The translations under genes and the position numbers were made by a program. From positions 1-41,744 of the forward strand of contig DAOVXU010000001.1 in NCBI GenBank assembly GCA_030635995.1: a stretch of DNA of 41,744 nt. The letters run 5' to 3'. This DNA comes from Arcobacter sp. (GTDB lineage Bacteria; Campylobacterota; Campylobacteria; Campylobacterales; Arcobacteraceae). Under the pieces are notes generated by a model, which saw only the letters and a list, made by a program, of their open reading frames with translations, ran no database searches and had not been told where the DNA came from. Positions within the stretch are counted from its first letter, which is position 1. Each line of letters starts with the position of its first letter. Below, one piece after another: positions 1,165 to 32,981 of this stretch.

Positions 1165-1173
1165 GGTTATCAC

Positions 1174-2106: not shown

Positions 2107-2118
2107 ACTTCCTCTATA

Positions 2119-6272: not shown

Positions 6273-6424
6273 ATTTACCTCCAATAAATCTATCTATTCT
6301 TAATGATACTAAAATATATATAAAAAGCTTATCTAAAATAAAAAGATTAACTAGTACCTTTAAATAATTTAGCTATTCTTAATTAAGTCTAAACTAGATA
6401 TAATCACGTATATAAGGAAAATAA

Positions 6425-15568: not shown

Positions 15569-17058
15569 AATCCACTTGTTTGTACTGCACTACTTACAAT
15601 ATCTAAAATTGGACTAACCCAGAATATTGAAGTGATTGCAAATGTAACTGCAATAGCAATTATAACTTTTAGAATCGTACCACTCATCTCAGTATACTCT
15701 AAAACTTTACCATCTTCTCTTTGCATAAAGAACATATAAACAATAAGTTTTAAATAATAAAATGCTGCAATAGCAGAATTAAGTACCATAATAATAGCTA
15801 ATAATACTTCACCAGCATTTATAGTTGCACTTACAAGATACATTTTACCCCAAAATACAGCAAATGGTGGTACACCTGCTAATCCAAACATTAATATAGC
15901 CAATAAGACAGCAGACAATGGTGAAGTCTTAATTAAACCTGTAAATTTATCATATTGATAATCAGATTTAAACCCATAAAATGATGGCTTCTCTTTAGTT
16001 CTATGTACCCATAACATAGCAAATGCTCCTAAATTTACAAAAGCAAATAAAATCCAATATAAAAATAGACCTTCAAGAGCTTGTGTAGTACCAAGCATAA
16101 TAGCAACTAATACAAATCCTGCATGAGAAATTGATGAATATGCTAACATCCTTTTTACATCAGTTTGAACCAAAGCAACTATATTTGGCAATGTCATTGT
16201 AATAATCGCAACACCATATAATATACCATGAACCCAAGCATTGTTTGCAGAGATAAATATCTCAAAAAATCTTATTGCTACAACTAATGTTGCAATTTTA
16301 GGAACAATAGCAATATAACCTGCCATTGCAGCACTAGAACCCTCATAAACGTCTGGAGCCCATACATGAAAAGGAACTAAAGATAATTTAAATCCTAATG
16401 CAGCTAACATAAAAACAACACCAACTAATACAACTGTATAATTCTCAAAATTATCATTTGCAAAATGTTGAGCAATTACAGATAATTCTATACTTCCTGT
16501 TAAATAATAAAATACCATAGAACCAAATGCAAAAAAACCAGCTGCTAAAGCACCCATTGTAAAGTACTTCATAGCACCTTCTATTGATTTACTAGTATTA
16601 TGCATTGCAATCATTGCATATAAACTCATAGATGCTGTTTCAAGTCCTACAAAAATTAGAATTAAATTATCAGAAGCTGTCATAATTTGAAAACCAGCTG
16701 TCATAAATAAGAACAATGCAAAATATTCAGGATAAGTATATTCATGAAATCTTTGTTTTGATAAACTTAAGAATATAAATAAACCAGAAGCGATAATAAT
16801 TATAGCTTGTGCCAATAATGATATGCCATCAATTAACATAACATCAAAGAAACCTCTAGTTGCACCAGCATAACTTATAACTGCACCTAAATCAAGAATT
16901 AAAAACAATATAGTTAAAACAACATAAAGATGTTTATCTGTATGTTTAGAAAACATATCAATACATAAAATTACTAATGCACCAATTATCGCTATTGACA
17001 TTGGAGCAATTGAAGCTAAATTTAAACTAGCTACATCGATTTGAATTGGAGTCATCAT
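15565..17058 (-). CDS. nuoN: NADH:quinone oxidoreductase subunit N
   Basis: Antiporter-like 14-TM protein, with LAYSSISHAGF and VPFHVWAPDVYEGS. Last gene of the nuo operon. Its start overlaps the nuoM stop (TAATG). Confidence 0.92.
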   Translation of the reverse strand: MMTPIQIDVASLNLASIAPMSIAIIGALVILCIDMFSKHTDKHLYVVLTILFLILDLGAVISYAGATRGFFDVMLIDGISLLAQAIIIIASGLFIFLSLSKQRFHEYTYPEYFALFLFMTAGFQIMTASDNLILIFVGLETASMSLYAMIAMHNTSKSIEGAMKYFTMGALAAGFFAFGSMVFYYLTGSIELSVIAQHFANDNFENYTVVLVGVVFMLAALGFKLSLVPFHVWAPDVYEGSSAAMAGYIAIVPKIATLVVAIRFFEIFISANNAWVHGILYGVAIITMTLPNIVALVQTDVKRMLAYSSISHAGFVLVAIMLGTTQALEGLFLYWILFAFVNLGAFAMLWVHRTKEKPSFYGFKSDYQYDKFTGLIKTSPLSAVLLAILMFGLAGVPPFAVFWGKMYLVSATINAGEVLLAIIMVLNSAIAAFYYLKLIVYMFFMQREDGKVLEYTEMSGTILKVIIAIAVTFAITSIFWVSPILDIVSSAVQTSGF

Positions 17059-18584
17059 TATTTTTTCTCCCCTATTGTATTTACTTTTATAATTGTTTCT
17101 TGAGCTCTAGAAGTAACTGCTCTTTCAGTCATAACTTGAACAAGTTGTTTAACACTCGCATCAACTGGCTCTAAAATTGGTTTAGGATGTACCCCTAAAT
17201 AAACTACTAGAAACACTAATGGAAGAAGTGCTGAATACTCTTTACCATTTAAATCTTTTAAATCTAAATTTGATTTATTTGTAACTGCACCAAAAAATGT
17301 TCTTTTATATAAAACTAACATATAAATTGCACCTAAAATAATTGTTAAACCAGCAATTGCAGTTAAAACTGGAGAAACTGCAAAGTAACCTAATAGTGAC
17401 AAAAATTCACCAACAAAACCAATTGTTAAAGGTAACCCAACTGATGCCATAAGCATAATACCAAATATAAGAGCATACATTGGCATAACTCTAGCTAATC
17501 CACCAAATTCGCTCATCATTTTTGTATGCTTTCTATCATAAATAACACCAACTAACATAAATAGTGCTCCTGATACTACACCATGAGATATCATTAAAAA
17601 TAAACTCCCACCAATACCTTCAACATTTAATGCAAAAATACCAAGTATAATAACACCCATATGAGATACTGAACTATAAGCAATTACTTGTTTTATATCC
17701 TCTTGTGCATAAGCTACCATTGCTGTATATATAATTGCAATTACAGCTAATACACCCATTGGTATCATAAAAGCAACCGAAGCATCTGGAAATAATGGTA
17801 AAGAAAATCTTATAAATCCATATGTTCCCATTTTAAGTAAAATTGCAGCAAGTATAACCGAACCAATAGTAGGTGCTTGTCCATGCGCATAAGGTAACCA
17901 TGTATGAAATGGAACCATAGGTACTTTAATAGCAAATCCTAAGAAAAATGCAACAAATAACCAAAGTTGAGTATTTAATGATAATGGTAACATATACCAA
18001 TCCATTAAATTAAAACTCCATGTTCCTGTTGTTTGTTGATATATAAATGCTAAATATAACATACCAACAAGCATAATTAATGAACCTGTAAATGTATATA
18101 AAAAGAATTTAACCGAAGCATAAATTCTTCTAGGACCTCCCCAAGCACCAATGATATATAACATAGGTACAAGAGAAAATTCCCAAAATACATAGAATAC
18201 AATAGCATCAAGAGCAACAAATACACCAACCATAGCCATCTCTAAAAATAATACAGTGATAATAAGATTTTTTAAATTTCTAGTTTCAGTTAAACCTATA
18301 AGAGAGATCATTGTAATAAATGTAGTCATTATTATTAAAAATAATGATATACCATCAATTCCTAAATTATAAGCAATCCCATACTGTGTAACAAGAGGTA
18401 TATATTCAGTAAACTGCATACCACCATTTGCTGTTTCAAAGTTATACCACAATACACATGATATAAAAAATTCTATAGCTGTAACAACTATACCGTATAC
18501 TCTAATAGCATCTTTCTCTACAAGCAATCCAATTATTGCTGCAAATACTGGAAAAAATATTAAAATAGATAAAATATGTTCCAT
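17058..18584 (-). CDS. nuoM: NADH:quinone oxidoreductase subunit M
   Basis: Antiporter-like subunit, with VPFHTWLPYAHGQAPT, IAYSSVSHMG and WEFSLVPMY. Confidence 0.93.
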   Translation of the reverse strand: MEHILSILIFFPVFAAIIGLLVEKDAIRVYGIVVTAIEFFISCVLWYNFETANGGMQFTEYIPLVTQYGIAYNLGIDGISLFLIIMTTFITMISLIGLTETRNLKNLIITVLFLEMAMVGVFVALDAIVFYVFWEFSLVPMLYIIGAWGGPRRIYASVKFFLYTFTGSLIMLVGMLYLAFIYQQTTGTWSFNLMDWYMLPLSLNTQLWLFVAFFLGFAIKVPMVPFHTWLPYAHGQAPTIGSVILAAILLKMGTYGFIRFSLPLFPDASVAFMIPMGVLAVIAIIYTAMVAYAQEDIKQVIAYSSVSHMGVIILGIFALNVEGIGGSLFLMISHGVVSGALFMLVGVIYDRKHTKMMSEFGGLARVMPMYALIFGIMLMASVGLPLTIGFVGEFLSLLGYFAVSPVLTAIAGLTIILGAIYMLVLYKRTFFGAVTNKSNLDLKDLNGKEYSALLPLVFLVVYLGVHPKPILEPVDASVKQLVQVMTERAVTSRAQETIIKVNTIGEKK

Positions 18585-18595
18585 TCTTTTCTCCC

Positions 18596-20533
18596 TTACT
18601 TAATTGAACCAAAAATTAATACAAGTATAAGTAATACAACTACACCACCTGCCATTAATTTTAAAGCTTTTGACAAGTTAGATGTTTGTACAACTCTTGC
18701 CTCTTGACCACCTGAACGAATACCACTTGCAATACTATCTACAATAGTATCAATGATTTTCATATCTATCTCTTTCCAACTAAATCTTGATAAAGCAAGA
18801 TAAGGTTTATTTATCATAGCTTCAATCATATGTGGAAAATAATATTGATTTGCTAATAATTTAAAACAAAATCTATCTCTTAATTTATCACCAAAATATT
18901 TTCCATCTTTTTGAAATTTAAAGTATGCAAATCCCATACCCGCTAATGATATAGAAATTGTAACAACCATCAACATAAGATTTGTGCTATCACTTACATG
19001 AGGATGAAATGCTGGTAATAATTGTGTAGCAAATTCAAAAAATGAATGTTCCCACCAACCTGCAACAACAGCAAGTATAGCTAAGGGTACCATTGAAGCA
19101 ATTACATAACCATATGCTTCATGAGGATGATAACCTAAACCTAACTCTTGATGAGTTTCTTTTCCAAAAAATACATACATTATAAGTCTAAATGAATAGA
19201 ATGCTGTTAATCCAGCTGTAATATATAATATACCCCATAATATATATGCATGTTCACCAAATGCTGAAGCAAGAATCAATTCTTTAGAATAGAATCCAGC
19301 CATCATTGGGAAACCTGCAAGTGCAGCTGAAGCAATAATCATAATCCAACCTGTATATGGCATATGTTTAAGTAATCCACCCATTTTTTTAATATTTATC
19401 TCATTATTCATAGCATGCATTACATTACCAGCACCTAAGAATAATACTGATTTAAAGAAAGCATGTGTTGCAAGGTGAAATAGTGCAATCCAATATGCTC
19501 CAACTCCAGCAGCAACAAACATATAACCAAGTTGTGACAATGTTGAATAAGCAATAATCTTTTTCATATTAGTAGCTACTAATGCTTGTGATGCTGCAAA
19601 TATTGCAACAAAAGCACCTATACAAGCTATTACATAACCAACTTCAGGAACTACAGTAAATATTTCATTTGCTCTAATTACTAAATATACTCCTGCAGTT
19701 ACCATAGTTGCAGCATGAATTAGTGCTGAAACTGGAGTAGGACCTTCCATCGCATTTGCAAGCCAAGTATTAAATGGAAACTGAGCTGATTTACCCATAG
19801 CTCCAATAAATAAGAATGCTGCAATAGCAACAACTAGACCATGACTCAATGTTCCAATCTCTGCAAATACAACATCATATTGTAAAGAACCTAAATTCCA
19901 ATATATTAAGAAAATACCAATTAACATACCAAGATCTGCAACTCTATTCATAATAAATGCTTCATTTGCAGCATATGAAGGTGAAATTGAAGAATACGGT
20001 GATAATGTAGAAAAAGGTGATTTTTCAATATCATCACTTGCAGGTACATCAGCTTTATGATACCAAAAACCAATTAGAAGCCAAGAACAAAGTCCAACCC
20101 CTTCCCAACCAATAAATAGACCAGCAAAGTTATCACTCATAACTAAGATCATCATAGAAAATACAAATGCACTTAAATATGAGAAAAATCTATTAAATGA
20201 TCTATCATGATCCATATATCCATTTGAATGGATATGAACCATAGCAGATACCATTGTCACAACAATCATCATCGATACACTAACTTGATCAACAACAATT
20301 CCAAATGGAACATTTACATTTCCTATAACTATCCAATCTTTTAAGCTAAAATGGATAATCTCACCTGTAGTTACTATATGATAAGCTAAATTAATAGATG
20401 CTATCAATGAAACTAAAATTAACGCTGATGTAACAATCCCTGTAAGTTGCACTTTCTTACTATTACCAAATAGTCCAGCAAATAATGATCCAACAAGTGG
20501 AGCAAATAATGCGATTAATGCATAATTTTCCAT
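18596..20533 (-). CDS. nuoL: NADH:quinone oxidoreductase subunit L
   Basis: GWEGVGLCSWLLIGFW, GKSAQFPFNTWLANAMEGPTPVSALIHAATMVTAGVYL, IAYSTLSQLGYMF. A C-terminal extension is consistent with the lateral helix. Confidence 0.93.
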   Translation of the reverse strand: MENYALIALFAPLVGSLFAGLFGNSKKVQLTGIVTSALILVSLIASINLAYHIVTTGEIIHFSLKDWIVIGNVNVPFGIVVDQVSVSMMIVVTMVSAMVHIHSNGYMDHDRSFNRFFSYLSAFVFSMMILVMSDNFAGLFIGWEGVGLCSWLLIGFWYHKADVPASDDIEKSPFSTLSPYSSISPSYAANEAFIMNRVADLGMLIGIFLIYWNLGSLQYDVVFAEIGTLSHGLVVAIAAFLFIGAMGKSAQFPFNTWLANAMEGPTPVSALIHAATMVTAGVYLVIRANEIFTVVPEVGYVIACIGAFVAIFAASQALVATNMKKIIAYSTLSQLGYMFVAAGVGAYWIALFHLATHAFFKSVLFLGAGNVMHAMNNEINIKKMGGLLKHMPYTGWIMIIASAALAGFPMMAGFYSKELILASAFGEHAYILWGILYITAGLTAFYSFRLIMYVFFGKETHQELGLGYHPHEAYGYVIASMVPLAILAVVAGWWEHSFFEFATQLLPAFHPHVSDSTNLMLMVVTISISLAGMGFAYFKFQKDGKYFGDKLRDRFCFKLLANQYYFPHMIEAMINKPYLALSRFSWKEIDMKIIDTIVDSIASGIRSGGQEARVVQTSNLSKALKLMAGGVVVLLILVLIFGSIK

Positions 20534-20535
20534 TT

Positions 20536-20841
20536 CTATCCCCCCATCTTTTGTAATGAATCTAGGTTTAAAGTATTTTTTCTTTTAAACCATAATATTA
20601 ATAATCCAAGTCCAACGGCAACTTCACTTGCAGCGATAGCTACAATAAAGAATGCAAACATTTGACCTGTTAAATCACCATGAAATTTTGATATTGCAGC
20701 AAAACCAATATTCACAGCATTTAACATTATTTCAGTTGCAAAAAATAACATAAGTAAATTTTTTCTTCTCATTGCACCTAATAATCCAATAGAAAATAAT
20801 ATTGTACTTAATATTAAATAATCATTTAGTGTTATTTCCAT
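20536..20841 (-). CDS. nuoK: NADH:quinone oxidoreductase subunit K
   Basis: 101 aa with 3 TM helices. Conserved membrane Glu residues in FFATEIMLNAVN and AASEVAVGLGL. Confidence 0.92.
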   Translation of the reverse strand: MEITLNDYLILSTILFSIGLLGAMRRKNLLMLFFATEIMLNAVNIGFAAISKFHGDLTGQMFAFFIVAIAASEVAVGLGLLILWFKRKNTLNLDSLQKMGG

Positions 20842-21431
20842 TACACATCCTTTTTATGTTCAAAATCGCTATGATGATGATCATTTTCTAAAATTTCATC
20901 CATACTCATATCCATTTTTTTACCAGCAAGTATAATACCACCTATCATAGCTACAAGTAACATAACTGCTGCTACTTCAAATGGAATTAGATATTTAGTA
21001 AATAATACAACACCAACATCTTGTATATTACCATCAATAGTTCCATACAAATTAGCTGCTATACCAACAGGATATTCAGGAGTAATATTTGCACCAATTA
21101 GTGGAGCAACAAATATTATAACTACCATTAAAGCTACTGCTCCAGAAAGTACAAATGTTAATCTTGGATTTGCAACAGATTCTTCAACATCACTAATAGA
21201 GTCAAAAAACATCATTCCAAATGCATAAAGTGCCATAACAGCACCTGTATATACAATAATTTGTACAACTCCTAGAAAATCTGCTTCTAAAATAAAAAAG
21301 AATGCAGATATAAAAATCATACCAGCAGCTAATGAACTTAACGCATATAATGCATTTTTAGTCATCACTGTTATGGTAAACATTGCAATTGTTAAAATTG
21401 CAAATAAATAAAAGGCTACTACTTCAAACAT
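20841..21431 (-). CDS. nuoJ: NADH:quinone oxidoreductase subunit J
   Basis: Position between nuoI and nuoK. GVVQIIVYTGAVMALYAFGMMF is typical of NuoJ. Has a hydrophilic His-rich tail (NDHHHSDFEHKKDV). Confidence 0.88.
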   Translation of the reverse strand: MFEVVAFYLFAILTIAMFTITVMTKNALYALSSLAAGMIFISAFFFILEADFLGVVQIIVYTGAVMALYAFGMMFFDSISDVEESVANPRLTFVLSGAVALMVVIIFVAPLIGANITPEYPVGIAANLYGTIDGNIQDVGVVLFTKYLIPFEVAAVMLLVAMIGGIILAGKKMDMSMDEILENDHHHSDFEHKKDV

Positions 21432-21440
21432 TATATATCC

Positions 21441-22064
21441 TTAATACGCAAGCGGTGTTTTTTTAATTTTTTTATCAGCATCTGGGCTAATAGCACCAAA
21501 TCCGTCAAACTCAATTTGTTGTTTAATATTATCAAATGGTGTAAGTAGATCATCTTTAAGTACAAAATGTGCTCTTTGCTCACTTGCATTTTCATATCTA
21601 TCACCATGTACAATAGCAAGCTCTGGACAAACTTCTGCACAATAACCACAAAAAATACATCTACCTAAATTAATTGTATATTCTACAACTTCTTTTCTAG
21701 ATTTTTCATCAATTCGTGTATCCATTTTTATACAATTTGCTATACAAATCTTTTCACAAAGACCACAACCAATACATCTGTTAGTTCCACTTTCAAGTAA
21801 ACCTAAAAGTTTATGTATTGCTCTATATCTAGGCGAAATTGGCAATCTTTCCATTGGATATTGAACTGTATGCATCTCATTATTAAATAATGCACCTTTC
21901 ATTATCTTAAATACAATACCAAGACCTTGAAATAGCTCTACACTAAATGTTCTTCTTGTGGCTTTCTTAAATGCTTCCCAACCAGTTGCTGGATATTCTT
22001 CAATATCCTGCATAACATACTCTTGGCTTCCTACATTTCTATTTTTTAAATCATTAAAATTCAT
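21441..22064 (-). CDS. nuoI: NADH:quinone oxidoreductase subunit I (2x[4Fe-4S])
   Basis: Two ferredoxin motifs, CIGCGLCEKICIANC and CIFCGYCAEVCPELA. Has an N-terminal extension. Confidence 0.93.
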   Translation of the reverse strand: MNFNDLKNRNVGSQEYVMQDIEEYPATGWEAFKKATRRTFSVELFQGLGIVFKIMKGALFNNEMHTVQYPMERLPISPRYRAIHKLLGLLESGTNRCIGCGLCEKICIANCIKMDTRIDEKSRKEVVEYTINLGRCIFCGYCAEVCPELAIVHGDRYENASEQRAHFVLKDDLLTPFDNIKQQIEFDGFGAISPDADKKIKKTPLAY

Positions 22065-22073
22065 ATTCTTTCC

Positions 22074-23036
22074 TTATACCATCATCACTAAACCAGTAAC
22101 TAAAATATTTAGTAACGCTAATGGCATTAATATTTTCCAACATAACCACATTAATTGATCTGGTCTAATATGAGGCCACGATGCTCTTGTCCATAAAAAT
22201 AAAAATATTAAAAACATAACTTTTATTATAATTGCAATTGCACCAGGAATAAACCACATATCATTAAATCCACCTAAAAATACTAAAGCAGTTAAAAATG
22301 AAACTGTAAAAAGATTAGCATACTCACCAATAAAGAACATCCCCCATCTCATACCAGAATATTCTGTTGCATAACCAGAAACAATCTCTGCTTCATGCTC
22401 AAGAAGATCAAATGGTGTTCTATTTGTTTCAGCATAACCTGCAATTAAAAATAGACCAAATGCTAATGGTTGTGACCAAATTAACCAGTTTGAAATTCCA
22501 CCAGCTTGATAATTATTTATATCAATTAAACTTAAACTTCCAACCATCATTAAAGGAGCTAATACAGATAAACCTGTAACAACCTCATATGATAATAATT
22601 GAATTGCTGTTCTAGCACCTCCAAGTAAACCCCATTTATTTGCTTGAGACATACCACCTAACAATGGACCATAAAGTCCAGTTGCCATAGCCCCAAGTAC
22701 AAATAATAATCCAACATTAATATCAGATATAATTACACCAGTGATAAATGGTACAGCACTCATAGCTATAAAAGCAGTAGCTGCTGTAATAATTGGAGCA
22801 AACATAAAGATTGGTCTATTTGCATGTTGAGGAATAAAATCTTCTTTTGTAAATAGTTTTGCTCCATCACAAAGAATTTGTATCACACCAAACGGACCTA
22901 CATGTGTAGGACCTAATCTTCTTTGCATAAAAGCAAGAATCTTTCTCTCTATATAAGTAGTAAACCCTGCTAAAGCTGAAAATACTGAAAGTATTACAAC
23001 AACTTTAACAATCGTCATTATTATGTCATTATCCAT
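22074..23036 (-). CDS. nuoH: NADH:quinone oxidoreductase subunit H
   Basis: ERKILAFMQRRLGPTHVGPFG and AETNRTPFDLLEHEAEIVSGYATEYSGMRW. Confidence 0.94.
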   Translation of the reverse strand: MDNDIIMTIVKVVVILSVFSALAGFTTYIERKILAFMQRRLGPTHVGPFGVIQILCDGAKLFTKEDFIPQHANRPIFMFAPIITAATAFIAMSAVPFITGVIISDINVGLLFVLGAMATGLYGPLLGGMSQANKWGLLGGARTAIQLLSYEVVTGLSVLAPLMMVGSLSLIDINNYQAGGISNWLIWSQPLAFGLFLIAGYAETNRTPFDLLEHEAEIVSGYATEYSGMRWGMFFIGEYANLFTVSFLTALVFLGGFNDMWFIPGAIAIIIKVMFLIFLFLWTRASWPHIRPDQLMWLCWKILMPLALLNILVTGLVMMV

Positions 23037-23038
23037 TT

Positions 23039-25483
23039 TTACACCTTTTTAATATTTGCATTGATATATCTATATCCAGCAAATAGTTTTTTAGTTTCAC
23101 AATTTTTCTCAAATGTTGGAACATATGCAATATCTCCATCAAGTTGATTATCTATAACTATATTTAAATCTACATCACCATTTTGTGTAGTAATATTTAC
23201 AGTATCATTTATATCTAATCCTAAATTTTCTAACATTTTAGAAGAAAGATATAATGCTGTTATATCTTTTGTAAGATTTTTTGATTTTGCTGTAAATTCA
23301 TTAAATTGGTTTATAGGATTTGCATTGTATATAATTGTACCCTCAAGAGTTGCATTGTCAATTTGTTTAACAACATCACTCCAAGGTAGATCGAATACTT
23401 TTAAATCATACCCTCTTGTCTCAACCATACTATTAGTAAAATAATTATCTAAATCATCAAAAGCAATTTTTTCAAAGATATTTGATGTATAATCAATTGT
23501 ATTTTCTTTTTTACAATCTAATATCTCATTAGCAATATCATTTAATGTATAACCAAAATATGGTAAAGCTGCATTTGTAGGTACAACTTTTTTATCAATA
23601 TTAGTAAAAGTACCCTCTTGCTGATTTAGTGAAGGCATATCAAGATCTCCATCTCCCAATGCACTAATTTCATAATCTGCTTTAACATTATATCCAACTG
23701 TATTACCTACAATCTGATCAGATAAATCACAAATTTGACTTGCACCTAAAGTATTTGTATTTGATGGAATTACAACAACTTTAAAATCAGTATATTTTTC
23801 AATTAATCCAGCTATTTTTGCTAAATTTTCACTATTTGGATGTGAATATAAATCTTCACCTAAAACTAAACTAAAAGTATCTTTTTTAAGAAGCATTGCC
23901 GCTATAATTTCTAGTAAAGTTTCATCATGACCAATAATATCTAGCAATTTTGTATATGTATACTCAACCTCTTTAGATACTTTTTTAGGTACCATTTTAG
24001 TAACTTCTTTTGTTCCACCTGTCTCTTCATCAGTAACAGTCTCAACTACTTTTTCTTTAATCATTTCAGATACAGTTTTAACTCTAGTTTCTCTAAAACT
24101 TTCAATATACGAAGCTACATCTACAGGTAAATCTTTTCCAAACTGATCAAGTATAAAAAACAATACAGCTTCTTCAGCTAAAGGTGTATGGAAAATTGTT
24201 TCTATTGTTTTGCTTTTTTTACCAAATCCTTCAATAGTAGTATCATTTAATGGATGAAAATATAATCCTGCACCCTTATTTATACTAATTGAATTATTAA
24301 ATGCAAATCTTACAGCTGGTGCATCTGATTTAAAATAAGAACCAACAGAGATTACAAAATTACTATTATGTACATCTTTTAGCGTTCCATTATATAAACT
24401 CTTACCGGTAATTGATGAAAAACTATTTAAGAACTTTTTATAATTTAAGGCATCACTATTTACAAGATTAAAACCAATTTTTTCTTTTAATTGTTGTAAA
24501 ATATATGCCTCTTCATTAGTAATAAAACTATTAAATAAAACTGTATCAGCTGATTTTAATTTCTCAATTGTATTTTTAAATTCAGCTTCATCTTTATTTT
24601 CTACTTTATTTGAATAATCAAATCCAAATCTAGCAGCTCCACTTAAAGATGTATAATGGGAATCATTAGTAACTCTATATATTTTCTTAACTTGATTTTT
24701 ATCAATTGATTCATTTTTAACTTCATAATATAAAAGTGAACAATCAGAAGAGTATGAATTTGATGCTGGAATCTTTTCTAACTCCCAAGCATTTGATTTA
24801 TATTTAAAATCTGTACTTGCTAATGCTCCCACAGGACAAACGGAGATACACTCACCACAATCTATACAATTATCTTCATTAAAACCTATAAGATTTTTAT
24901 TTAGTTTATTCCACATAGCATAAGCATCTTTTGGCATATTCTCTTTGTACTGTTTATCTAAGGCATCTGCACCTCTTTTAACAGTAGAAAGAGCAGCAGA
25001 ACCAATCATATCTTTACATACAGTTACACATTTTTCACAAACTATACAAAGTCCTGGGTCATAACTCATCACTCCCCAAACTGATGTTGGTCTATCAACA
25101 TCTCTTACTGCATAATCTTGCTTATCAACACCCATATATAAAGTATAATTTTGAAGTTCACACTCTCCACTTTGATCACATACACCACATTGTAATGGAT
25201 GATTTACATCATAAACTTCCATTATTGCTTTTCTCTCTTTAGCAATATTTTCAGTTGTTGTTGTTATTGTCATTCCATCTTTAACTTTAGCATTACAAGA
25301 ATATACTTGCTTACCATCTGCTTCAACCAAACACAATCTACATGCTAAAGTTGGTGAACATCTAGTAAGATAACAAATAGCTGGGACAAATATATCATTA
25401 GCACGAGCTACATTTAATATATATTCACCCTCAACAGCTTTGCACTCCTTACCGTCAATGTTTACAGTAATTAATTCACTCAT
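23039..25483 (-). CDS. nuoG: NuoG-type Fe-S subunit, downstream paralogue (N7-type Cys motif lost)
   Basis: 2Fe-2S CYLTRCSPTLACRLC...SC. N5-type HPLQCGVCDQSGEC. CIVCEKCVTVC plus CIDCGECISVCPVGAL. Molybdopterin-oxidoreductase-like C-terminal part. At the N7 position it reads NSYSSDCS (nt 24737-24760). Its start overlaps the upstream paralogue's stop (ATGA). Confidence 0.85.
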   Translation of the reverse strand: MSELITVNIDGKECKAVEGEYILNVARANDIFVPAICYLTRCSPTLACRLCLVEADGKQVYSCNAKVKDGMTITTTTENIAKERKAIMEVYDVNHPLQCGVCDQSGECELQNYTLYMGVDKQDYAVRDVDRPTSVWGVMSYDPGLCIVCEKCVTVCKDMIGSAALSTVKRGADALDKQYKENMPKDAYAMWNKLNKNLIGFNEDNCIDCGECISVCPVGALASTDFKYKSNAWELEKIPASNSYSSDCSLLYYEVKNESIDKNQVKKIYRVTNDSHYTSLSGAARFGFDYSNKVENKDEAEFKNTIEKLKSADTVLFNSFITNEEAYILQQLKEKIGFNLVNSDALNYKKFLNSFSSITGKSLYNGTLKDVHNSNFVISVGSYFKSDAPAVRFAFNNSISINKGAGLYFHPLNDTTIEGFGKKSKTIETIFHTPLAEEAVLFFILDQFGKDLPVDVASYIESFRETRVKTVSEMIKEKVVETVTDEETGGTKEVTKMVPKKVSKEVEYTYTKLLDIIGHDETLLEIIAAMLLKKDTFSLVLGEDLYSHPNSENLAKIAGLIEKYTDFKVVVIPSNTNTLGASQICDLSDQIVGNTVGYNVKADYEISALGDGDLDMPSLNQQEGTFTNIDKKVVPTNAALPYFGYTLNDIANEILDCKKENTIDYTSNIFEKIAFDDLDNYFTNSMVETRGYDLKVFDLPWSDVVKQIDNATLEGTIIYNANPINQFNEFTAKSKNLTKDITALYLSSKMLENLGLDINDTVNITTQNGDVDLNIVIDNQLDGDIAYVPTFEKNCETKKLFAGYRYINANIKKV

Positions 25484-27759
25484 TTTGTATCAACCTTTTT
25501 AATTTTTACTTGTTTATATCTATAACTCAAGGGTATCGAATCACTACTTAATCCATTGTCAAATGTTGGATATAATGCAATTGTACCCTTAATCGTTGTA
25601 TCAATTTTAAACATTTTAGTAGTAATATTCTCTTTATAAATAATTTCTACCATATCGCCATCATTTATTTTAGCCGCCATCGCAAAAGAGCTACTACCTC
25701 TTAAATGTGAATCAGATTGCAACAATAGTGACTTAGCTGTAGCTGTATTAAACTGATGTAATGGTTCACATCTATAAACAACTGAACCATTATATGATTT
25801 AAGATCATCAACCTCTTCTATATCAATAGGTAATATTTGAATATTCTTACTAGTTAAAGAATAACCTCTTAAATCAGTACCATATTTATCGTAACCATTT
25901 CCTAATATATCAAATTCAATTGACTTATATTCATTTTCATTATCTAATAATGGTGTATAATCTATAGTATATTTTCTTTTTTGATCTAAAATCTCATTTG
26001 CTAAATCATTTAAACAAAATCCATCAAAATTTAAAGCAGAATTTGTATTAACGACTTTCATATCTAAACTTGTAAATGTACCCTCTTGCTGATTTAATGC
26101 TGGAACATTAAAATCACCATCACCACTATTTGATATAGTAAAATTACCAAGTTCATTATAACCTACAATATTACCTTTAACATCCCCATCTAAATCACAT
26201 AATAAACTAACACCAAGTGTATTTGTTTGAGAAGGGATTAACATAATATTAAAATCTGTATATTTATCAATCAACCCTACTAATTTAGCAATATTTATAG
26301 CTCTTGGATGAGCATATAGATCTGTACCAATTATTATAGTTTTATTTTTTCTTCTTATTAATTTTGTTTGAATAAGCTCAAATTCCTCTTCACCTACACT
26401 AGATTCACCACTTAAATAACCAATATCAAGTTCATCAAAATATTCTTCAAATTCTTTAGGAATATCTTCTATTAAATATGATGCTAACATTGCCAGAATA
26501 GCCTCTTCACTACCAACTTCATATTTCACAAATTGTGTATATTTATTTGATAATGCGATATCATCAATTGGGTGCATATAAATAAATTGTGCATTTTGTT
26601 TTTTAGTTGCTATATTTACATTATATTTTACACCTGGATTATCTCTACTTATTCTAGTACCAATCATAATAATTGCATCACTTTGAGATACAGTGTCGTT
26701 AGAAGCAGTATATAAAGACTTCCCAGTTACACTGCTATAATTTCTTAAAAAGTTTTGATAATTTTTAGCATCTTCATTAACTAGATTTAAACCAAGTTTA
26801 TTCTTAAGATTTTGTAATATTAAAGCCTCTTCATTTGTTATAAATGAATTAAACCTAATCGTATTTGCATTTTTAAGTGCATCAACTGCCTTTACAAAAT
26901 CTTCACTAGAATTACTAACTTCTTTATTTTCAAATTCGAATCCAAATCTACCAGCACCACATAAAGTTGAAAATTCAAAATCATTTTTAACTCTTGTAAT
27001 TTTAGATTCATATGGATTATCAATTCCAGCATTCTTAACATCATAAACTAATGCACACCCACTTGAACAATGAGCACAAGATGCTGGTACTTGATCTGCT
27101 TCCCAAGCATTTGAAGTATATTTATAAGCATTTGATACTAAAGCTCCAACTGGACATACAGAGATACAATCTCCACACTGTTCACATCTTGAATATTTAA
27201 TATCAATTGTAGATTTATAGCCACCTGGTTTCACATAAAGTGCAGCAGTACCTATAACTTCATTACAAGTATGTACACATTTTTCACACATAATACATAA
27301 ATGTGGATCATATCCTAAGATTCCCCATTTTTTTTGTTTTCTTGGTTGATCTTTTACTGCAAATTCTTGACTTTCAACTTTAAATTCTAAATTCTTATTT
27401 TGAAGATCACATTCACCACTTTTATCACAAACACCACACTGTAATGGATGATTAACATCATAAAGTTTCATAATATTTACTCTATGTCGTTCTATCTCAT
27501 CATTATTTGTTGTAATAACAGCATTATTTACTGCTTTTTCCTGACATGATAAAATTAAACCATCAACACCTTCAACATTAACTGCACACATTCTACATGA
27601 TGCTATTGGAGAAACTTTTGTAAGGTAACACATAGTAGGGATATAGATATCATTTCTTCTTGCTATATCTAAAATTGTTTCACCATAGACACCATCACAT
27701 GATTTACCATCAATATTTATTGTTATTGGTTTATTCCTATGTTCTGATTTTGTACTCAT
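25480..27759 (-). CDS. NuoG-type Fe-S subunit, upstream paralogue (retains N7-type CxxCxxxC motif)
   Basis: CYLTKVSPIASCRMC...SC, HPLQCGVCDKSGEC, CIMCEKCVHTC, CEQCGDCISVCPVGAL, and CAHCSSGC (nt 27055-27078) plus the downstream LCGAGRF. Clearly paralogous to the next gene (shared NSFITNEEA.ILQ.LK, DKYTDF, LNQQEGTFT, LNDLANEILD). Start set at the ATG at 27759 (MSTKSEHRNKPITINIDGK aligns with MSELITVNIDGK of the paralogue). That ATG forms an ATGA overlap with the preceding stop. The track's longer start at 27795 is less likely. Confidence 0.8.
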   Translation of the reverse strand: MSTKSEHRNKPITINIDGKSCDGVYGETILDIARRNDIYIPTMCYLTKVSPIASCRMCAVNVEGVDGLILSCQEKAVNNAVITTNNDEIERHRVNIMKLYDVNHPLQCGVCDKSGECDLQNKNLEFKVESQEFAVKDQPRKQKKWGILGYDPHLCIMCEKCVHTCNEVIGTAALYVKPGGYKSTIDIKYSRCEQCGDCISVCPVGALVSNAYKYTSNAWEADQVPASCAHCSSGCALVYDVKNAGIDNPYESKITRVKNDFEFSTLCGAGRFGFEFENKEVSNSSEDFVKAVDALKNANTIRFNSFITNEEALILQNLKNKLGLNLVNEDAKNYQNFLRNYSSVTGKSLYTASNDTVSQSDAIIMIGTRISRDNPGVKYNVNIATKKQNAQFIYMHPIDDIALSNKYTQFVKYEVGSEEAILAMLASYLIEDIPKEFEEYFDELDIGYLSGESSVGEEEFELIQTKLIRRKNKTIIIGTDLYAHPRAINIAKLVGLIDKYTDFNIMLIPSQTNTLGVSLLCDLDGDVKGNIVGYNELGNFTISNSGDGDFNVPALNQQEGTFTSLDMKVVNTNSALNFDGFCLNDLANEILDQKRKYTIDYTPLLDNENEYKSIEFDILGNGYDKYGTDLRGYSLTSKNIQILPIDIEEVDDLKSYNGSVVYRCEPLHQFNTATAKSLLLQSDSHLRGSSSFAMAAKINDGDMVEIIYKENITTKMFKIDTTIKGTIALYPTFDNGLSSDSIPLSYRYKQVKIKKVDTK

Positions 27760-29771
27760 ACAGCCACCATCCCAAGGTAATAACATCTCATACATCTCTC
27801 AGCTTCTGCTTGCGCTTCTTCAGCTGTAAAACCTAGATTTACCTCTTTATTATTGTCTTTTCTCACTTCAGTTGCTAGTTTTTCACTCACTTCTCGCAGG
27901 ATGCCTGGCATCCAACCTGTAATTTTTTCTTTTTTATTATAAACTTTAAGTTTATTCATATGATCTTCCATAATCTCTTCATCTGTAAGTGTTATTTTAC
28001 CATCATATATATATCTACTAATTACAGAAGCTGCTCGTCTTGCTTGTCCAACAGCATTTACAATAGTCATAGGACCATATTCACAATCTCCTGCTGCAAA
28101 AAGCCCATCTCTATTTGTCATATAATCTTTACCATTAGTTTGTAATGTACCCCATGAAGTCATCTCTAATTCCCATTCTTTTGGTAATATTTGAAGATCA
28201 CAAGCTTGTGAAACTGCTGGAATTACAAAATCACACTCTATTTCAAAGTCTGCACCCTCTATTTTTACTAATTGAGCTCTACCACCATTTGGATCTGGAA
28301 CTAATTCATATTTATTTACAATTAAGGATGTTAATTGTCCTTCATCATCAAATAACTCTTGAATAGCACTATGAAAAATAAACTCAACACCCTCTTCTAC
28401 TGCTTCAGTATATTCTTCTAAAGTTGTATTTCTAATAATTGTTTTTTCATCTCTTCTATAAAGCATAACAACTCTTTTTGCACCTTCACGAATAGAACAT
28501 CTAACAACATCCATAGAGGTAAATCCACCACCAACACAAACTACAGTTTTACCTTTTAATTCATTTGAAGCAGGAGATCCAATTTTAAATTTATGCCATA
28601 AGTTAACCTTATCAAGCATCTCTATTGCACCCCAGTAACCTTTCATCTCAGTGTTCTCATTTCCACATCTAATAGCTTTACTAAGTCTTGCTCCAAATCC
28701 TAGTAAAGTAGCATCAAATTCCTCTTCAATCTCTTTAAGTCTAGTAGCTGATACTCTATGATTTGTAATAACTTCAACACACTCTAAATCTGTTACAAGT
28801 TTAATATCTTCATTATATTTATCAAAAGGCATTCTATATTCTGGAACACCCACTGTAACTTCACCACCAAGTACTGGTAATTCTTCAAAAATAGTTACCC
28901 TAATACCTTGAATTGCTAAATAATATGCAGCTGTTAAACCTGCTGGTCCAGCTCCTATAATTGCAACTCTTTTACCATCATTTTTAGATTTTGCAGGTTC
29001 AATAGGATGAATCCAAGGAAGATTATGATCAGTTTCATAATCTGCTCCAATTCTTTTTAATTCCATAATTGAAATTGGCTCATCCAAATTTGTTCGTCTA
29101 CAAGCATCTTCACAAGGATGAGGACAAACTCTTCCACAAACATGAGCTAATGGCATATGTTCTCTTGTAGCACTTAATGTTGCTTCAAAATCTAAATCTC
29201 TAACACCTTCAATATATGCAGGAATATCAATATGCGTAGGACACATATCACTACATGGAGCTGTTACATTTGCTATATATTTACTATCATCAACATCATA
29301 CCAAGGAGATTTTTTTTGTTCTTTAATTAAGTCAAAAAAATCTTTTTCAAAATACTGTATCATTTGTAAAATTGGAACAGGAACTGTCTTACCAATTTCA
29401 CATTTACTTGTACTTGTCATAGTGGAACTTATCTCTTTTAAATGATCTAAATCAGAAAATTCACCCTCACCACGAGCAATTTTATCAAGCATGTCATATA
29501 GTATTCTTCCACCCCATCTTCCAGGAGCACATCGACCACAAGCTTCAGAATATTCTTGGTATTGTCTTGCATAATTTAATGCAAGTTTAACAATATCTAC
29601 ATCTTTGGTAAAAAGAGCAAATCCATCCCAACCAACAAAAGCTTTAGTTTGTGTATCTGCATCATAATTTACTGGTAATTTAGCTGATACTTCTTTCCAA
29701 TCATCAATATTATCAATATCTCGATTGTCAATTATATCATCTTGCCAGCTTGAAAAATATACTTTACTCAC
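27756..29771 (-). CDS. chimeric flavoprotein in the NuoF slot: NuoF C-terminal Fe-S segment fused to a GltD/SfrB-type FAD-NAD(P)H oxidoreductase
   Basis: Residues ~44-150 (AFVGWDGFALFTKDVDIV...YSEACGRCAPGRWGG...SKCEIGK) resemble the NuoF N3-cluster region. CGRCAPG lies at nt 29520-29540. Next come CPTHIDIPAYI, CGRVCPHPCEDAC, VAIIGAGPAGLTAAYYLA (GAGPAG at nt 28938-28955), VVCVGGGFTSMD...MLYRRD and LFAAGDC. The protein ends in RCMRC. GTG start has AGGA 7 nt upstream. No FMN-domain motifs seen. Confidence 0.75.
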   Translation of the reverse strand: MSKVYFSSWQDDIIDNRDIDNIDDWKEVSAKLPVNYDADTQTKAFVGWDGFALFTKDVDIVKLALNYARQYQEYSEACGRCAPGRWGGRILYDMLDKIARGEGEFSDLDHLKEISSTMTSTSKCEIGKTVPVPILQMIQYFEKDFFDLIKEQKKSPWYDVDDSKYIANVTAPCSDMCPTHIDIPAYIEGVRDLDFEATLSATREHMPLAHVCGRVCPHPCEDACRRTNLDEPISIMELKRIGADYETDHNLPWIHPIEPAKSKNDGKRVAIIGAGPAGLTAAYYLAIQGIRVTIFEELPVLGGEVTVGVPEYRMPFDKYNEDIKLVTDLECVEVITNHRVSATRLKEIEEEFDATLLGFGARLSKAIRCGNENTEMKGYWGAIEMLDKVNLWHKFKIGSPASNELKGKTVVCVGGGFTSMDVVRCSIREGAKRVVMLYRRDEKTIIRNTTLEEYTEAVEEGVEFIFHSAIQELFDDEGQLTSLIVNKYELVPDPNGGRAQLVKIEGADFEIECDFVIPAVSQACDLQILPKEWELEMTSWGTLQTNGKDYMTNRDGLFAAGDCEYGPMTIVNAVGQARRAASVISRYIYDGKITLTDEEIMEDHMNKLKVYNKKEKITGWMPGILREVSEKLATEVRKDNNKEVNLGFTAEEAQAEAERCMRCYYLGMVAV

Positions 29772-29786
29772 TTTAAAATCCTATAA

Positions 29787-30050
29787 TTATTCTGCTGAAC
29801 TTTCATCAACTTCTACTACTGGTACTGTTTTTTTAATAACTACAGTCCAATCTACTTCATTAAATTTTAAAGAATTCATTAAAGTCCAATTATTTTCTTT
29901 TACAATATCAGCAACATTTTGTACTGGAGAAAAATCTCCAATTTCAAAAAGAAAAATTCCATTTTCATCTTCTACAATTTCACTATTCATTAACTCTACT
30001 AATCTATCAGTAAAATTATCATTTAATTCTCTTAAATCATATCTTTTCAT
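29787..30050 (-). CDS. small acidic Cys-free protein in the NuoE slot (function unknown)
   Basis: 87-aa ORF with no cysteine, so it cannot be a 2Fe-2S NuoE. Its ATG overlaps the nuoD stop (TAATG), and the next gene starts 16 nt after its stop. Coding status is supported by operon fit only. Confidence 0.6.
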   Translation of the reverse strand: MKRYDLRELNDNFTDRLVELMNSEIVEDENGIFLFEIGDFSPVQNVADIVKENNWTLMNSLKFNEVDWTVVIKKTVPVVEVDESSAE

Positions 30051-31276
30051 TATCTATCTATCTCCCCAAATACTATATTTAGGTTACCAATAATTGTAAC
30101 AACATCAGCTAATTGATGACCAGGAAGTAAATCTTGTAATACACCTGTATGCCAAAAGCTCGGAGCTCTAAGTTTCATTCTATATGGATATGGTGAACCA
30201 TCACTTACAACAAAATAGCCTAACTCACCTTTTGGCGATTCAGTTGCTATATAAACTTCTCCTACTGGTGGTCTCATACCCTGAGTTACCAAAACAAAAT
30301 GTTGCATCAAAGAATAATTTTGAGTCATCATATCCTCTTTAGTAGAAGATATATATTCAGGTGAATGAGCCATAAGTTGAGTATCACTTTGCTCATACAT
30401 AGGGATAAGTTGTTTTAATATTCTCATCGATTGATGCATCTCCGCCATATGTAATTTATATCTAGCATATGAATCACCTTTATCAGATGTAGGAATATCA
30501 AAATCTAATTCTGGATAAAGTCCATATGGCATCTCTTTTCTTAAATCCCATTTAACACCAGAAGCTCTTAAAACTAAACCTGTACATCCCCAACTTCTTG
30601 CCATTTTAGAATCAATAACACCTACATTTTCAAGTCTCATTCTCCAAATTCTATTTTTTGTAAGAAGACCTTCATAGATACCTATTTGTTCCGTTAAGAT
30701 ACCCATGAATTTTTCCATTTGTGCTATCCAACCAACAGGTAAATCTAAAGGTACACCTCCAATTCTTACTGCACTATGAGTAAGTCTAGCTCCACAATAA
30801 TCTTCCATAAGATCCATTGCAAATTCTCTTTCTCTAAACGCATATAAAAATACAGACATAGCACCAACATCAAGTGCATGAGTAGCAAGCCAGAAAAGAT
30901 GTGAGATAAGTCTATTTATTTCAAGAAGCATTGTTCTTATCACTTCAGCTCGTCTAGGTGCTTCAACTCCAATAAGTTTTTCTATTGCTAAAGCATAACC
31001 ATAGTTATTTGAAGTTGCTGCAATATAATCTGTTCTATCAGTTGTAGGTAGAAATTCATTATACATCATATTCTCACCCATTTTTTCTATACCTCTATGA
31101 AGGTATCCAACATCTGGATGAGCTTTTACTACCTCTTCACCTTGAAGCTCTAAAATAAGTCTTAACTGACCATGAGCAGATGGATGTTGAGGACCAAAGT
31201 TAACAACCATAGTGTTGTCATCTCTATCAAATGTAATATTTTCAAAAAATGGTTTTAATCTATTGACTTGTTGCAT
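30050..31276 (-). CDS. nuoD: NADH:quinone oxidoreductase subunit D
   Basis: [31 protein letters not shown]-terminal [18 protein letters not shown]. Confidence 0.95.
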
Positions 31277-31278
31277 AA

Positions 31279-32100
31279 TTATCTTCTCTCTTCTAAATTT
31301 GTTGGTTCAATTTCATCAAATGGAGTTACAAGTTTTTTACCAAATAATTGTACTCCACCCTCTTCTTGATATCTTACAGGTGTATCTGGTTCTTTACCAT
31401 CTGTAATATCTGTACCAAATGGAACTTCATGACCAAGTCTTGAAAATCTTGTAGTATCATATCTATCAATAGCAGCTGCATCTCTTATCTCTGGACCAAT
31501 AACATCTCTTGCTTCTTTTCCAAATATTTTATCAACTTCATACCATTGTGCTGATTCATCACCATGCAATGGATAAGTTTTAAGTAAAGGATGACCTGTC
31601 CAATCATCTGGCATAAGAATTCTTTTTAACATAGGATGATTATTTGCAACTATTCCAAACATATCAAACATCTCTCTCTCAGACCAATTTGCCATTCTAA
31701 ATAATGGTTCAACTGATTCAATTGCTTGACCCTCTTTAATAAAAGTTTTGACTCTTAGTCTTTTTCTTTTTGATGTAGATAACATCTCATAAAAAACTTC
31801 AAACCCACCTCTAGTAGCAACATAATCAACTGCACTAAGTTCCATTAAAAAATCATATGCACAAATATCTCTTAAATGCTTAATAGCTTCAATATTATCT
31901 TGTGGTACAATATGTAAAACTAAATGATCTAATTCTATATATGCTTCACTTATTTCAACTTTATTTTTTAAACTTAAATAAGCATTACTTAAAGTCGAAT
32001 CACTATATACTGATTTTCTTTGTAATGTAGGTTTAACAAAAAATCTATCGCTATAATATGATTTTGCTTGTACATTATCTTTTGGTTTATAAGCTCTCAT
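31279..32100 (-). CDS. nuoC: NADH:quinone oxidoreductase subunit C
   Basis: [20 protein letters not shown] and [18 protein letters not shown]. Abuts nuoB and nuoD. Confidence 0.92.
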
Positions 32101-32610
32101 CTATATCAACCTTTTTGCTTTTTGAGCCAATCCAGCTGGCTGTCTTCTTATTTTTCTTTGTAACATCATCAACGCATATTGCAATGTCTCTGGTCTAGGA
32201 GCACATCCTGGAAGATAAATATCAACAGGTACTATTCTATCCACACCTTGAACTGTTGCATATGTATTAAACATACCACCAGTATTTGCACAACTACCCA
32301 TAGAGATTACCCATTTTGGATCTGGCATTTGGTCATATAATCTTCTCATAAACTCTGAATGTTTTTTTGTTAGAGTTCCTGCAACAATAATAACATCAGA
32401 TTGCCTAGGAGATGCTCTAAATATAGTACCAAATCTATCAAAATCAAATCTTGATGCACCTGAAGCCATCATCTCAATAGCACAACATGCTAATCCATAA
32501 GTCATTGGCCAAAGCGAATTACTTCGTCCAAAATTTACTATTTTATCTACTGTTGTAAGAGCAATAGGTGCCCCTCCATCTTGTAAATAGTTTACTTTAT
32601 GCTGTGCCAT
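32101..32610 (-). CDS. nuoB: NADH:quinone oxidoreductase subunit B (N2 cluster)
   Basis: [30 protein letters not shown]. Confidence 0.95.
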
Positions 32611-32981
32611 TCAAGCGCTCCTTTTTTCCATGCATATATAAATCCAATTGTTAATAAAATAATAAATGTTATCATTTCAATAAATCCAAACCATCCAAGA
32701 ACTTTAAAATCAACAGCCCAAGGAAACATAAATATAATCTCAACATCAAATAAAATAAATAATAATGCCATTAGATAAAATTGTACAGAGATAGTGTTAG
32801 GTTGCTTAGTAACCTCTGGTCCACACTCGTATAATGTACATTTTAATTTTTCTGTATCAAGTCTTGCTAGTTTTCTACTTACAAATCTCGATAACATAGT
32901 TGTTGCGGTAAATGCTCCAAATGTTACTATAAACATAACAAAAGCACCAAAATAAGGATGTGCAAAATCCATATGTTCCAT
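32592..32981 (-). CDS. nuoA: NADH:quinone oxidoreductase subunit A
   Basis: 3-TM protein with YECGPEV and [22 protein letters not shown] Shine-Dalgarno lies 5 nt upstream of the ATG. First gene of the operon. Confidence 0.9.

Follow-up and report, generated by a model that had tools for sequence, protein, structure and literature searches.

Two NuoG paralogues and a linked NfnB-like flavoprotein in the complex I operon of an Arcobacteraceae genome

The DNA studied here (the window: 41,744 nucleotides, about 29% G+C, contig DAOVXU010000001.1 of assembly GCA_030635995.1) comes from an Arcobacteraceae genome from a cold seep, and carries a complete nuoA-N operon for complex I at 15565-32981 on the minus strand. 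The genes run in the order nuoA, nuoB, nuoC, nuoD, E87, Fx, G1, G2 and then nuoH to nuoN, where E87, Fx, G1 and G2 are our designations. E87 (29787-30050, minus strand, as are all nuo-operon coordinates below) encodes an 87-residue protein that matches PF16514, ‘putative NADH-ubiquinone oxidoreductase chain E’, a family specific to Campylobacterota, with an E-value of 1.6e-33. Fx (27756-29771) encodes a protein of 671 residues at the NuoF position, with matches to Pfam PF10589, PF14691 and PF07992, and it is followed by two NuoG paralogues, the upstream, shorter G1 (25480-27759; 759 residues) and the downstream, longer G2 (23039-25483; 814 residues). Scans with Pfam and NCBIfam found neither a NuoE nor a NuoF/HydB domain of the flavin mononucleotide (FMN)-binding kind encoded in the operon; the complex I of Campylobacterota, that of the pathogens Campylobacter and Helicobacter included, does not use the normal NADH-oxidising subunits. 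The arrangement in the window has itself been described before. Of more interest are the strict linkage between Fx and G1 and the presence of a truncated G1 at the NuoF position in other genomes, for which we found no description in the literature searched.

A sequence-only reading of the window, made before this analysis, had recognized the two open reading frames (ORFs) of 759 and 814 residues as tandem, diverged NuoG paralogues, and this was borne out, both being full-length. The two proteins are 40% identical over their full length (580 bits, BLASTP), and both clear the curated threshold (591 bits) of NF006305, the NCBIfam model for the Campylobacterota-type NuoG, G2 with 1096 bits in a single end-to-end stretch and G1 with 843 bits in two stretches. 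Against TIGR01973, the NuoG equivalog model with a cut-off of 470 bits, they reach only 165 (G2) and 205 bits (G1); the Campylobacterota proteins form a separate, divergent NuoG subfamily. Alignment places two insertions in G2 relative to G1, one at about residues 173-204, between the two ferredoxin-type cysteine motifs (approximately 24872-24967), and one at about residues 460-505, rich in Lys, Glu and Thr (approximately 23969-24106). The ATGA overlap that had been noticed between G1 and G2 is real (25480-25483), and the Fx stop and G1 start share another if G1 begins at the ATG at 27759; an alternative upstream ATG at 27795 would give a protein of 771 residues and an overlap of 40 nt with Fx. 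We rejected the ATGA overlap as a general conserved feature, because among the related loci described below a 4-nt overlap occurs at only about one-quarter of the G1/G2 junctions and one-third of the Fx/G1 junctions.

The same reading had credited both copies with the full NuoG set of iron–sulfur (Fe-S) sites. The ligands of N1b (four cysteines, [2Fe-2S]), N5 (HxxxCxxCxxxxxC) and N4 (CxxCxxC...CP) are indeed present in G1 and G2, aligning with those of Escherichia coli NuoG, but the two complete CxxCxxCxxxC(P) motifs that it counted as part of this set are not standard: the E. coli protein has only CxxCxxC plus the final C-P, which make cluster N4. In the alignment each of the two window copies has four cysteines beyond the E. 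coli set, a site that we name X, and these would be enough for one additional, putative [4Fe-4S] cluster; the cofactor set predicted for both copies is thus larger than the canonical one. The two copies differ at the N7 site, where the residues translate exactly as first read. In G1, CAHCSSGC (27055-27078) provides C228, C231 and C235, and the fourth ligand is C267 in LCGAGRF; these align with C228, C231, C235 and C263 of E. coli NuoG, whose N7 motif is CxxCxxxC...C. In G2, the corresponding NSYSSDCS (24737-24760) has N/S/S/S at the ligand positions, the fourth being a serine in LSGAARF, and the E. coli alignment confirms the loss of N7. Taking CxxCxxxC followed about 27 residues on by a fourth cysteine as the mark of an N7-bearing protein, G1 has it, with a spacing of 31, and G2 does not.

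The likeness of the C-terminal part to molybdopterin oxidoreductases, also claimed from the letters alone, lies below threshold in Pfam (PF00384, E 0.004; PF01568, E 0.01), and the formate dehydrogenase alpha models TIGR01591 and TIGR01553 give the NuoG copies only 22-24 bits, so that neither is a significant match to the FdsA/FdhF group. The fold itself, however, finds support in the AlphaFold model of G1, which is confident over residues 280-759 and in a fold search matches FdsA-type, NAD-dependent formate dehydrogenases, E. coli NuoG and Thermus Nqo3 with E-values of 1e-29 to 1e-23; the C-terminal half of G1 is therefore predicted to have a molybdopterin-oxidoreductase-like fold. The structure model was made of G1, to which G2 is about 40% identical across this region. 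With NuoG of E. coli and Nqo3 of Thermus thermophilus the window proteins thus share the N1b, N5 and N4 ligands, the overall fold and, in G1 only, the N7 motif, whereas those enzymes have a single copy, NuoE and NuoF (FMN) as its partners, and no cluster X. The background assumed in the sequence-only reading, that complex I normally contains one NuoG and that N7 is an off-pathway cluster present in some lineages only, agrees with Spero et al. 2015.

The NuoG duplication is not new. A preprint on Sulfurimonas denitrificans (bioRxiv 10.1101/717884) reports that in chemoautotrophic Campylobacteria complex I departs from the canonical form in its NuoE/F subunits and has two NuoG copies, an observation that a passage of the preprint credits to Weerakoon and Olson 2008, and that the Suden_1822-1824 arrangement is conserved in Sulfurimonas and Sulfurovum. 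Suden_1824 is described there as an NfnB-like substitute for NuoF, Suden_1823 as the short and Suden_1822 as the long NuoG; the pair is 36% identical and similarly expressed, and Suden_1823 lacks two regions present in Suden_1822. The window agrees with S. denitrificans in gene order (E-like, NfnB/GltD-like at the NuoF position, short NuoG, long NuoG, nuoH), in the identical two regions missing from the short copy, and nearly in identity (40% here against 36% there). It differs in belonging to an Arcobacteraceae genome and in a G2 without N7, since the Sulfurimonadaceae G2 keeps that site.

We collected 188 related loci from species-representative genomes. The order E87-Fx-G1-G2-nuoH, whose conservation the earlier reading had proposed to check, recurs in several families of Campylobacterota (Arcobacteraceae, Sulfurovaceae, Sulfurimonadaceae, and the genera Nitratiruptor and Nitratifractor), and both copies are intact in more than 70 genomes. 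None of the N1b, N5 and N4 ligands varies among 80 G1 and 72 G2 sequences, nor do the N7 ligands of G1 (80/80 loci) or the X ligands of G2 (72/72). The asymmetry at N7 is real but lineage-specific, and is not the general property of G2 for which it might be taken from the window: N7 has been lost from G2 in every Arcobacteraceae locus, in two further loci (L042 and L045) and in the Sulfurospirillum-type NuoG, and independently, with other replacement residues, in one Sulfurovum subclade, whereas it is kept in Sulfurimonadaceae, most Sulfurovaceae, Nitratiruptor and Nitratifractor. The NuoG of the gastric Helicobacter cetorum also keeps N7 in the alignment.

A neighbour-joining tree of G1, G2 and representatives at 50% identity gave support of 52% for the G1 clade, 56% for the N7-less G2 clade and less than 20% for deeper nodes; because of this weak support, we classified sequences by the difference between their scores on hidden Markov models (HMMs) of the two copies. 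For each NuoG of a named Helicobacter the G2 HMM gives a score 104-188 bits above that of the G1 HMM, and for the Sulfurospirillum NuoG the margin is 431 bits; by these scores the single NuoG of Helicobacter and of Sulfurospirillum corresponds to G2, which makes G2 the ‘ordinary’ NuoG of the phylum. Some Helicobacter-related genomes also have a divergent full-length G1-type protein, either besides a truncated G1 or beside a G2-type protein; instances are P0179 and P0459 (Helicobacter sp. MIT 14-3879), and P0143 and P0182. A G2-type NuoG in Helicobacter together with a full-length G1 in some of its members implies that the duplication predates the split of the Helicobacteraceae from the other families, and on this sequence evidence the G1 lineage is older and wider than the chemoautotroph families.

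The loss of a cofactor site, N7, in G2 could be taken to mean that one copy is redundant or in decay and has no separate function. We regard this as very improbable, given a duplication of such age, two copies intact in so many genomes, and cluster ligands that are invariant apart from lineage-specific losses at N7 and X. Crude ratios of nonsynonymous to synonymous substitution (dN/dS) of about 0.27 for G1 and 0.26 for G2, compared with 0.21 for NuoL, 0.17 for Fx and 0.10 for NuoD, place both copies under purifying selection, with neither decaying. Conservation, invariant ligands and dN/dS together led us to reject a pseudogene or a chance duplication, the first of which had been named beforehand as an outcome that would undermine the sequence-only reading.

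The protein encoded at the NuoF position is of composite make-up. Residues ~30-155 of Fx resemble the C-terminal Fe-S domain of NuoF/HydB and contain the NuoF-like motif CGRCAPGRWGG...C (CxxCxxG...C; residues 78-124, window 29400-29540), in which a glycine stands at the third N3 ligand position in all 107 orthologues. Residues ~167-664 form a GltD/NfnB-like domain for flavin adenine dinucleotide (FAD) and NAD(P)H, with eight cysteines invariant across the same orthologues, which would suffice for two [4Fe-4S] clusters. Fx matches the PDB entries 9bov_A, 9n5u_A, 8oh5_C and 4ylf_B with E-values of 1e-78 to 1e-66 (residues 167-664 against the first three, 1e-78 to 1e-67), so that, among solved structures, it comes nearest to the GltD-like NADPH/FAD domains of StnC, of NfnA (from the ‘Bfu-type’ transhydrogenase NfnABC) and of NfnB. 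In StnC the GltD-like domain is fused to a NuoG-like domain, NADPH electrons pass linearly into the NuoG clusters and the FAD does not bifurcate (PMC10482914). Since the GltD-like domain of StnC feeds its NuoG-like domain, Fx and G1 together may be viewed as a split analogue of a known NADPH-input module, and Fx, by analogy, as an NADPH-type flavoprotein. The likeness to StnC and NfnA (PDB 8oh5, 9n5u, 9bov) extends to a GltD/NfnB-like NADPH-FAD domain, two [4Fe-4S] clusters and a NuoG-like part, the last being in those proteins a catalytically inactive formate-dehydrogenase-like domain. They differ in forming one chain, with GltD inserted after the [2Fe-2S] domain of NuoG and docked on a HydBC-like FMN module; here there are two genes, a NuoF C-terminal domain on Fx, no FMN module and the context of a membrane complex I.

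That Fx and G1 behave as one unit is seen most directly in their linkage, which we counted over non-redundant G1-type ORFs. Fx lies directly before G1 in 112 of the 112 full-length cases with readable upstream sequence, G2 follows G1 in 107 of these 112 loci, and wherever a related locus extends far enough upstream E87 precedes either Fx or a truncated G1. In a few places the pair is found without its usual neighbours. It stands alone, without nuoA-D, in L019:5938-10286, and in three related Arcobacteraceae metagenome-assembled genomes (MAGs) the operon runs nuoA-D-E87-Fx-G1 and ends after G1 (L033:5983-10283, L034:553-4898 and L030); downstream of G1 there are unrelated genes on the other strand in L033 and L034, and L030 stops at the contig end. 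In two Campylobacterales MAG contigs (L041:2712-5975 and L077:3416-6683), E87-Fx-G1 is followed by nuoH with no G2. A distant relative of the pair was noticed in an uncultured bacterium (L108:397-4900), in which a Fx-like gene (25% identity, 114 aa) precedes a 919-aa G1-like gene (25%); it may be an outgroup of the Fx-G1 pair.

These exceptional loci bear on the possibility that Fx-G1 is a soluble oxidoreductase related to Stn/NfnABC, such as an NADPH:ferredoxin/flavodoxin enzyme, merely co-transcribed with the nuo genes and supplying or draining the carrier of a G2-type complex I. The lone pair and the operons that stop after G1 are what it would predict, as is the likeness of Fx to the GltD domain of the soluble StnC and NfnA. 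It nevertheless accounts poorly for the insertion of the pair between E87 and G2 in 107 of the 112 loci, and for the two loci in which G1 is the sole NuoG beside nuoH; moreover, profile scans of the window proteins found no HydBC/StnAB-like partner with an FMN domain encoded in the window, and the C-terminal domain of G1 stays at the same operon position after Fx has gone, as described next. We therefore think a free-standing enzyme of this kind quite unlikely.

The loci without Fx show which part of G1 goes with it. In 47 of 47 cases a G1 without the Fe-S N-terminus is also without Fx, and lies directly after E87 and before G2. The short form of truncated G1 has 241-305 residues, covering positions ~340-510 plus ~640-756 of the G1 HMM, and sits at the NuoF position, between the E87 homologue and NuoG, in Sulfurospirillum and in enterohepatic Helicobacter (H. 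cinaedi, H. magdeburgensis, H. labetoulli, H. japonicus and H. marmotae; L081-L107, L109-L125 and others, for example L090:6530-7420 and L103:5135-6004); it also occurs in Helicobacteraceae MAGs and in one Sulfurimonas. The G1 HMM gives these proteins 59-266 bits, the G2 HMM 0-67. A longer, intermediate form of 455-463 residues, spanning HMM positions 280-757 and thus the whole C-terminal domain with no Fe-S part, is found in four Sulfurovaceae MAGs (L132, L144, L145 and L164) in the order E87, truncated G1, G2, with no Fx; in the first three it scores 366-410 bits on the G1 HMM against 187-215 on the G2 HMM. No Pfam family matched the truncated proteins, which are named in databases ‘hypothetical’ or ‘Epsilonproteobacterial nuoF-like’. 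In one ORF of a Helicobacter-like contig of 1986 nt (P0472, 337 aa) E87 (PF16514) and truncated G1 appear to be fused, which hints at an interaction between the two, although a single-base assembly error could also produce such a fusion.

Drawing on the conservation, purifying selection, gene linkage and patterns of domain loss observed here, we propose that a complex I containing G2 carries, anchored to it, an NADP(H) module made up of Fx and the Fe-S half of G1, with both copies as functional subunits, and we put the chances of this being so at about even. G2 would sit where NuoG does in the canonical enzyme and hand electrons on to NuoI via N4 and N5, whereas G1, the product of an old duplication, would be the partner of Fx. 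Running forward, the path would begin with NADPH reducing the FAD in the GltD-like domain of Fx, from which electrons would pass by way of the two [4Fe-4S] clusters of Fx to the N1b/N4/N5 chain of G1, and so to the G2-containing arm and to quinone; in reverse, the same path driven by the proton-motive force could make NADPH. The molybdopterin-enzyme-like C-terminal domain of G1 looks like an anchor, because the truncated forms keep their position between E87 and G2, and it may hold the Fx-G1 module on the complex near E87 and G2; such a role would explain why the N-terminal half of G1 disappears along with Fx and the C-terminal half stays. In losing N7, the G2 of Arcobacteraceae would then have shed a structural cluster that lies off the electron pathway and can be dispensed with, consistent with findings in E. 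coli, and the retention of N7 by G1 in every locus probably serves stability. The comparison thus gives a testable picture, in which the second NuoG and the NfnB-like protein form one unit, the Fe-S half of G1 going with the flavoprotein and the other half persisting as an unnamed ‘NuoF-like’ protein.

The sequence-only reading, the observation of which was correct, had offered two explanations, both copies in one peripheral arm as an extended electron wire or one copy in an accessory dehydrogenase module docking onto complex I, and as interpretation it is partly supported; it had passed over Fx and the existing description of the duplication. The second is favoured by the linkage to Fx in 112 of 112 cases, by the lone pair in L019 and by the operons of L030, L033 and L034; the first gains indirect support from the G1 remnant beside G2 in all 47 loci of its kind.

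Several points weigh against the proposed Fx-G1 module for NADP(H) on a complex I that contains G2. It is operon position that suggests that G1 and G2 are physical subunits of the peripheral arm, the case for both in one particle is indirect throughout, and co-assembly is what we infer, as are the nucleotide used and the direction in which electrons flow. The presumed preference for NADPH over NADH is drawn from homology and from residues reported by others for Suden_1824. A cluster in the NuoF-like domain of Fx is uncertain, since there are only three cysteines there. The absence of G2 from L041 and L077 implies that G1 may take the canonical NuoG position, or else that G2 is encoded elsewhere in those genomes. 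Mirror-tree analysis of rate covariation gave residual correlations of G2 with NuoL (0.63), E87 (0.57), NuoC (0.46) and NuoB (0.39), but none above 0.22 for G1, and hence no clear partner for it; and our search of the PDB found no Campylobacterota complex I structure.

The loci with G1 as the only NuoG gene are also what would be expected if G1 and G2 were alternatives that compete for one NuoG site, an Fx-G1 form of the complex using NADP(H) and an E87-G2 form flavodoxin or ferredoxin. G2 is, conversely, the sole full-length NuoG in Sulfurospirillum and Helicobacter, and each copy has kept the complete N1b/N5/N4 chain that the canonical position calls for. The C-terminal remnant of G1 beside G2 is, however, hard to explain without a shared particle, and Fx, G1 and G2, which overlap or lie less than 15 nt apart in nearly all of the related loci, are packed in a way that better fits co-assembly than competition. 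We consider alternative assemblies unlikely.

A further scheme, proposed for Suden_1822-1824, is that of a bifurcating complex I working in reverse, in which the proton-motive force drives the reduction both of NADP+, at Fx, and of ferredoxin, and X links N4 to N7 in the short NuoG (G1) as the branch point (Gotz et al. 2019; bioRxiv 10.1101/717884). The G1 of the window does have both X and N7, and its fold matches that of FdsA-type enzymes. In those enzymes the clusters equivalent to X and N7 form a continuous chain. Against this, nine Sulfurovum loci (L043, L046, L047, L059, L060, L068, L074, L078 and L080) have S/Y/L/A instead of the X cysteines in G1, and in four of these (L059, L068, L078 and L080) G2 is also without N7, so that neither copy has both sites; a conserved X-to-N7 branch cannot therefore be essential. 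As either site, N7 or X, can be dispensed with in one of the two copies, models that place the bifurcation site there are limited accordingly. In addition, a MAG that bears the label Aliarcobacter butzleri (L035), of the Arcobacteraceae, carries this operon too. Aliarcobacter butzleri is a heterotroph, and the occurrence of the operon in this presumed heterotroph means that the module is not tied to autotrophy. Taken together, these observations make bifurcation at G1 distinctly unlikely.

If Fx-G1 is indeed a module seated on a G2 core, the truncated proteins may suggest how the flavodoxin-dependent complex I of Campylobacter jejuni and Helicobacter pylori arose, in which nuoE and nuoF are replaced by Cj1575c/Cj1574c and HP1264/HP1265. 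That system shares PF16514 with E87 and the NuoG type NF006305 with G2, and differs from the window in having neither Fx nor the Fe-S part of G1. By position, truncated G1 corresponds to Cj1574c and HP1265. When the truncated-G1 family was searched for, twice with profiles and once by a genome scan, proteins of Sulfurospirillum and enterohepatic Helicobacter came up, but none of C. jejuni or H. pylori. We tentatively suggest, as something possible rather than probable, that the ancestral Campylobacterota complex I had two NuoG proteins at once, with Fx-G1 on a G2 core, and that the proteins now at the NuoF position are the leftover G1 anchor; this identity is seen in enterohepatic Helicobacter and in Sulfurospirillum, and Cj1574c and HP1265 may share it. 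Were this so, a two-NuoG ancestry would explain those essential subunits of unknown nature and define a complex I with an exchangeable input module.

The remaining genes of the operon lie on either side of those discussed. Upstream are nuoA (32592-32981; PF00507), nuoB (32101-32610; PF01058), nuoC (31279-32100; PF00329) and nuoD (30050-31276; PF00346), and downstream of G2 are nuoH (22074-23036), nuoI (21441-22064), nuoJ (20841-21431), nuoK (20536-20841), nuoL (18596-20533), nuoM (17058-18584) and nuoN (15565-17058). The operon is flanked by housekeeping genes (fabF, accA, argH, argD, glmU, coaBC, uppS, truA, cobJ, cobT and pabB). The nearest genomes are MAGs of Arcobacteraceae, whose G1 proteins are ~73% identical to that of the window. 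A search of sequence runs with the window found its DNA in cold-seep metagenome DNA runs only, and matched no RNA run. Four ORFs encoding 257-485 residues, at 4827-6284 (minus strand) and at 7587-8762, 8749-9762 and 13042-13815 (plus strand), have no NCBIfam match at E 1e-10, while their neighbours are otherwise well-annotated housekeeping genes. At 38340-40268 (minus strand), a protein of 642 residues has as its sole matches Legionella-type ankyrin (Ank) effector models, weakly and far below their cut-offs, a likeness that is unusual for a free-living member of the Arcobacteraceae.

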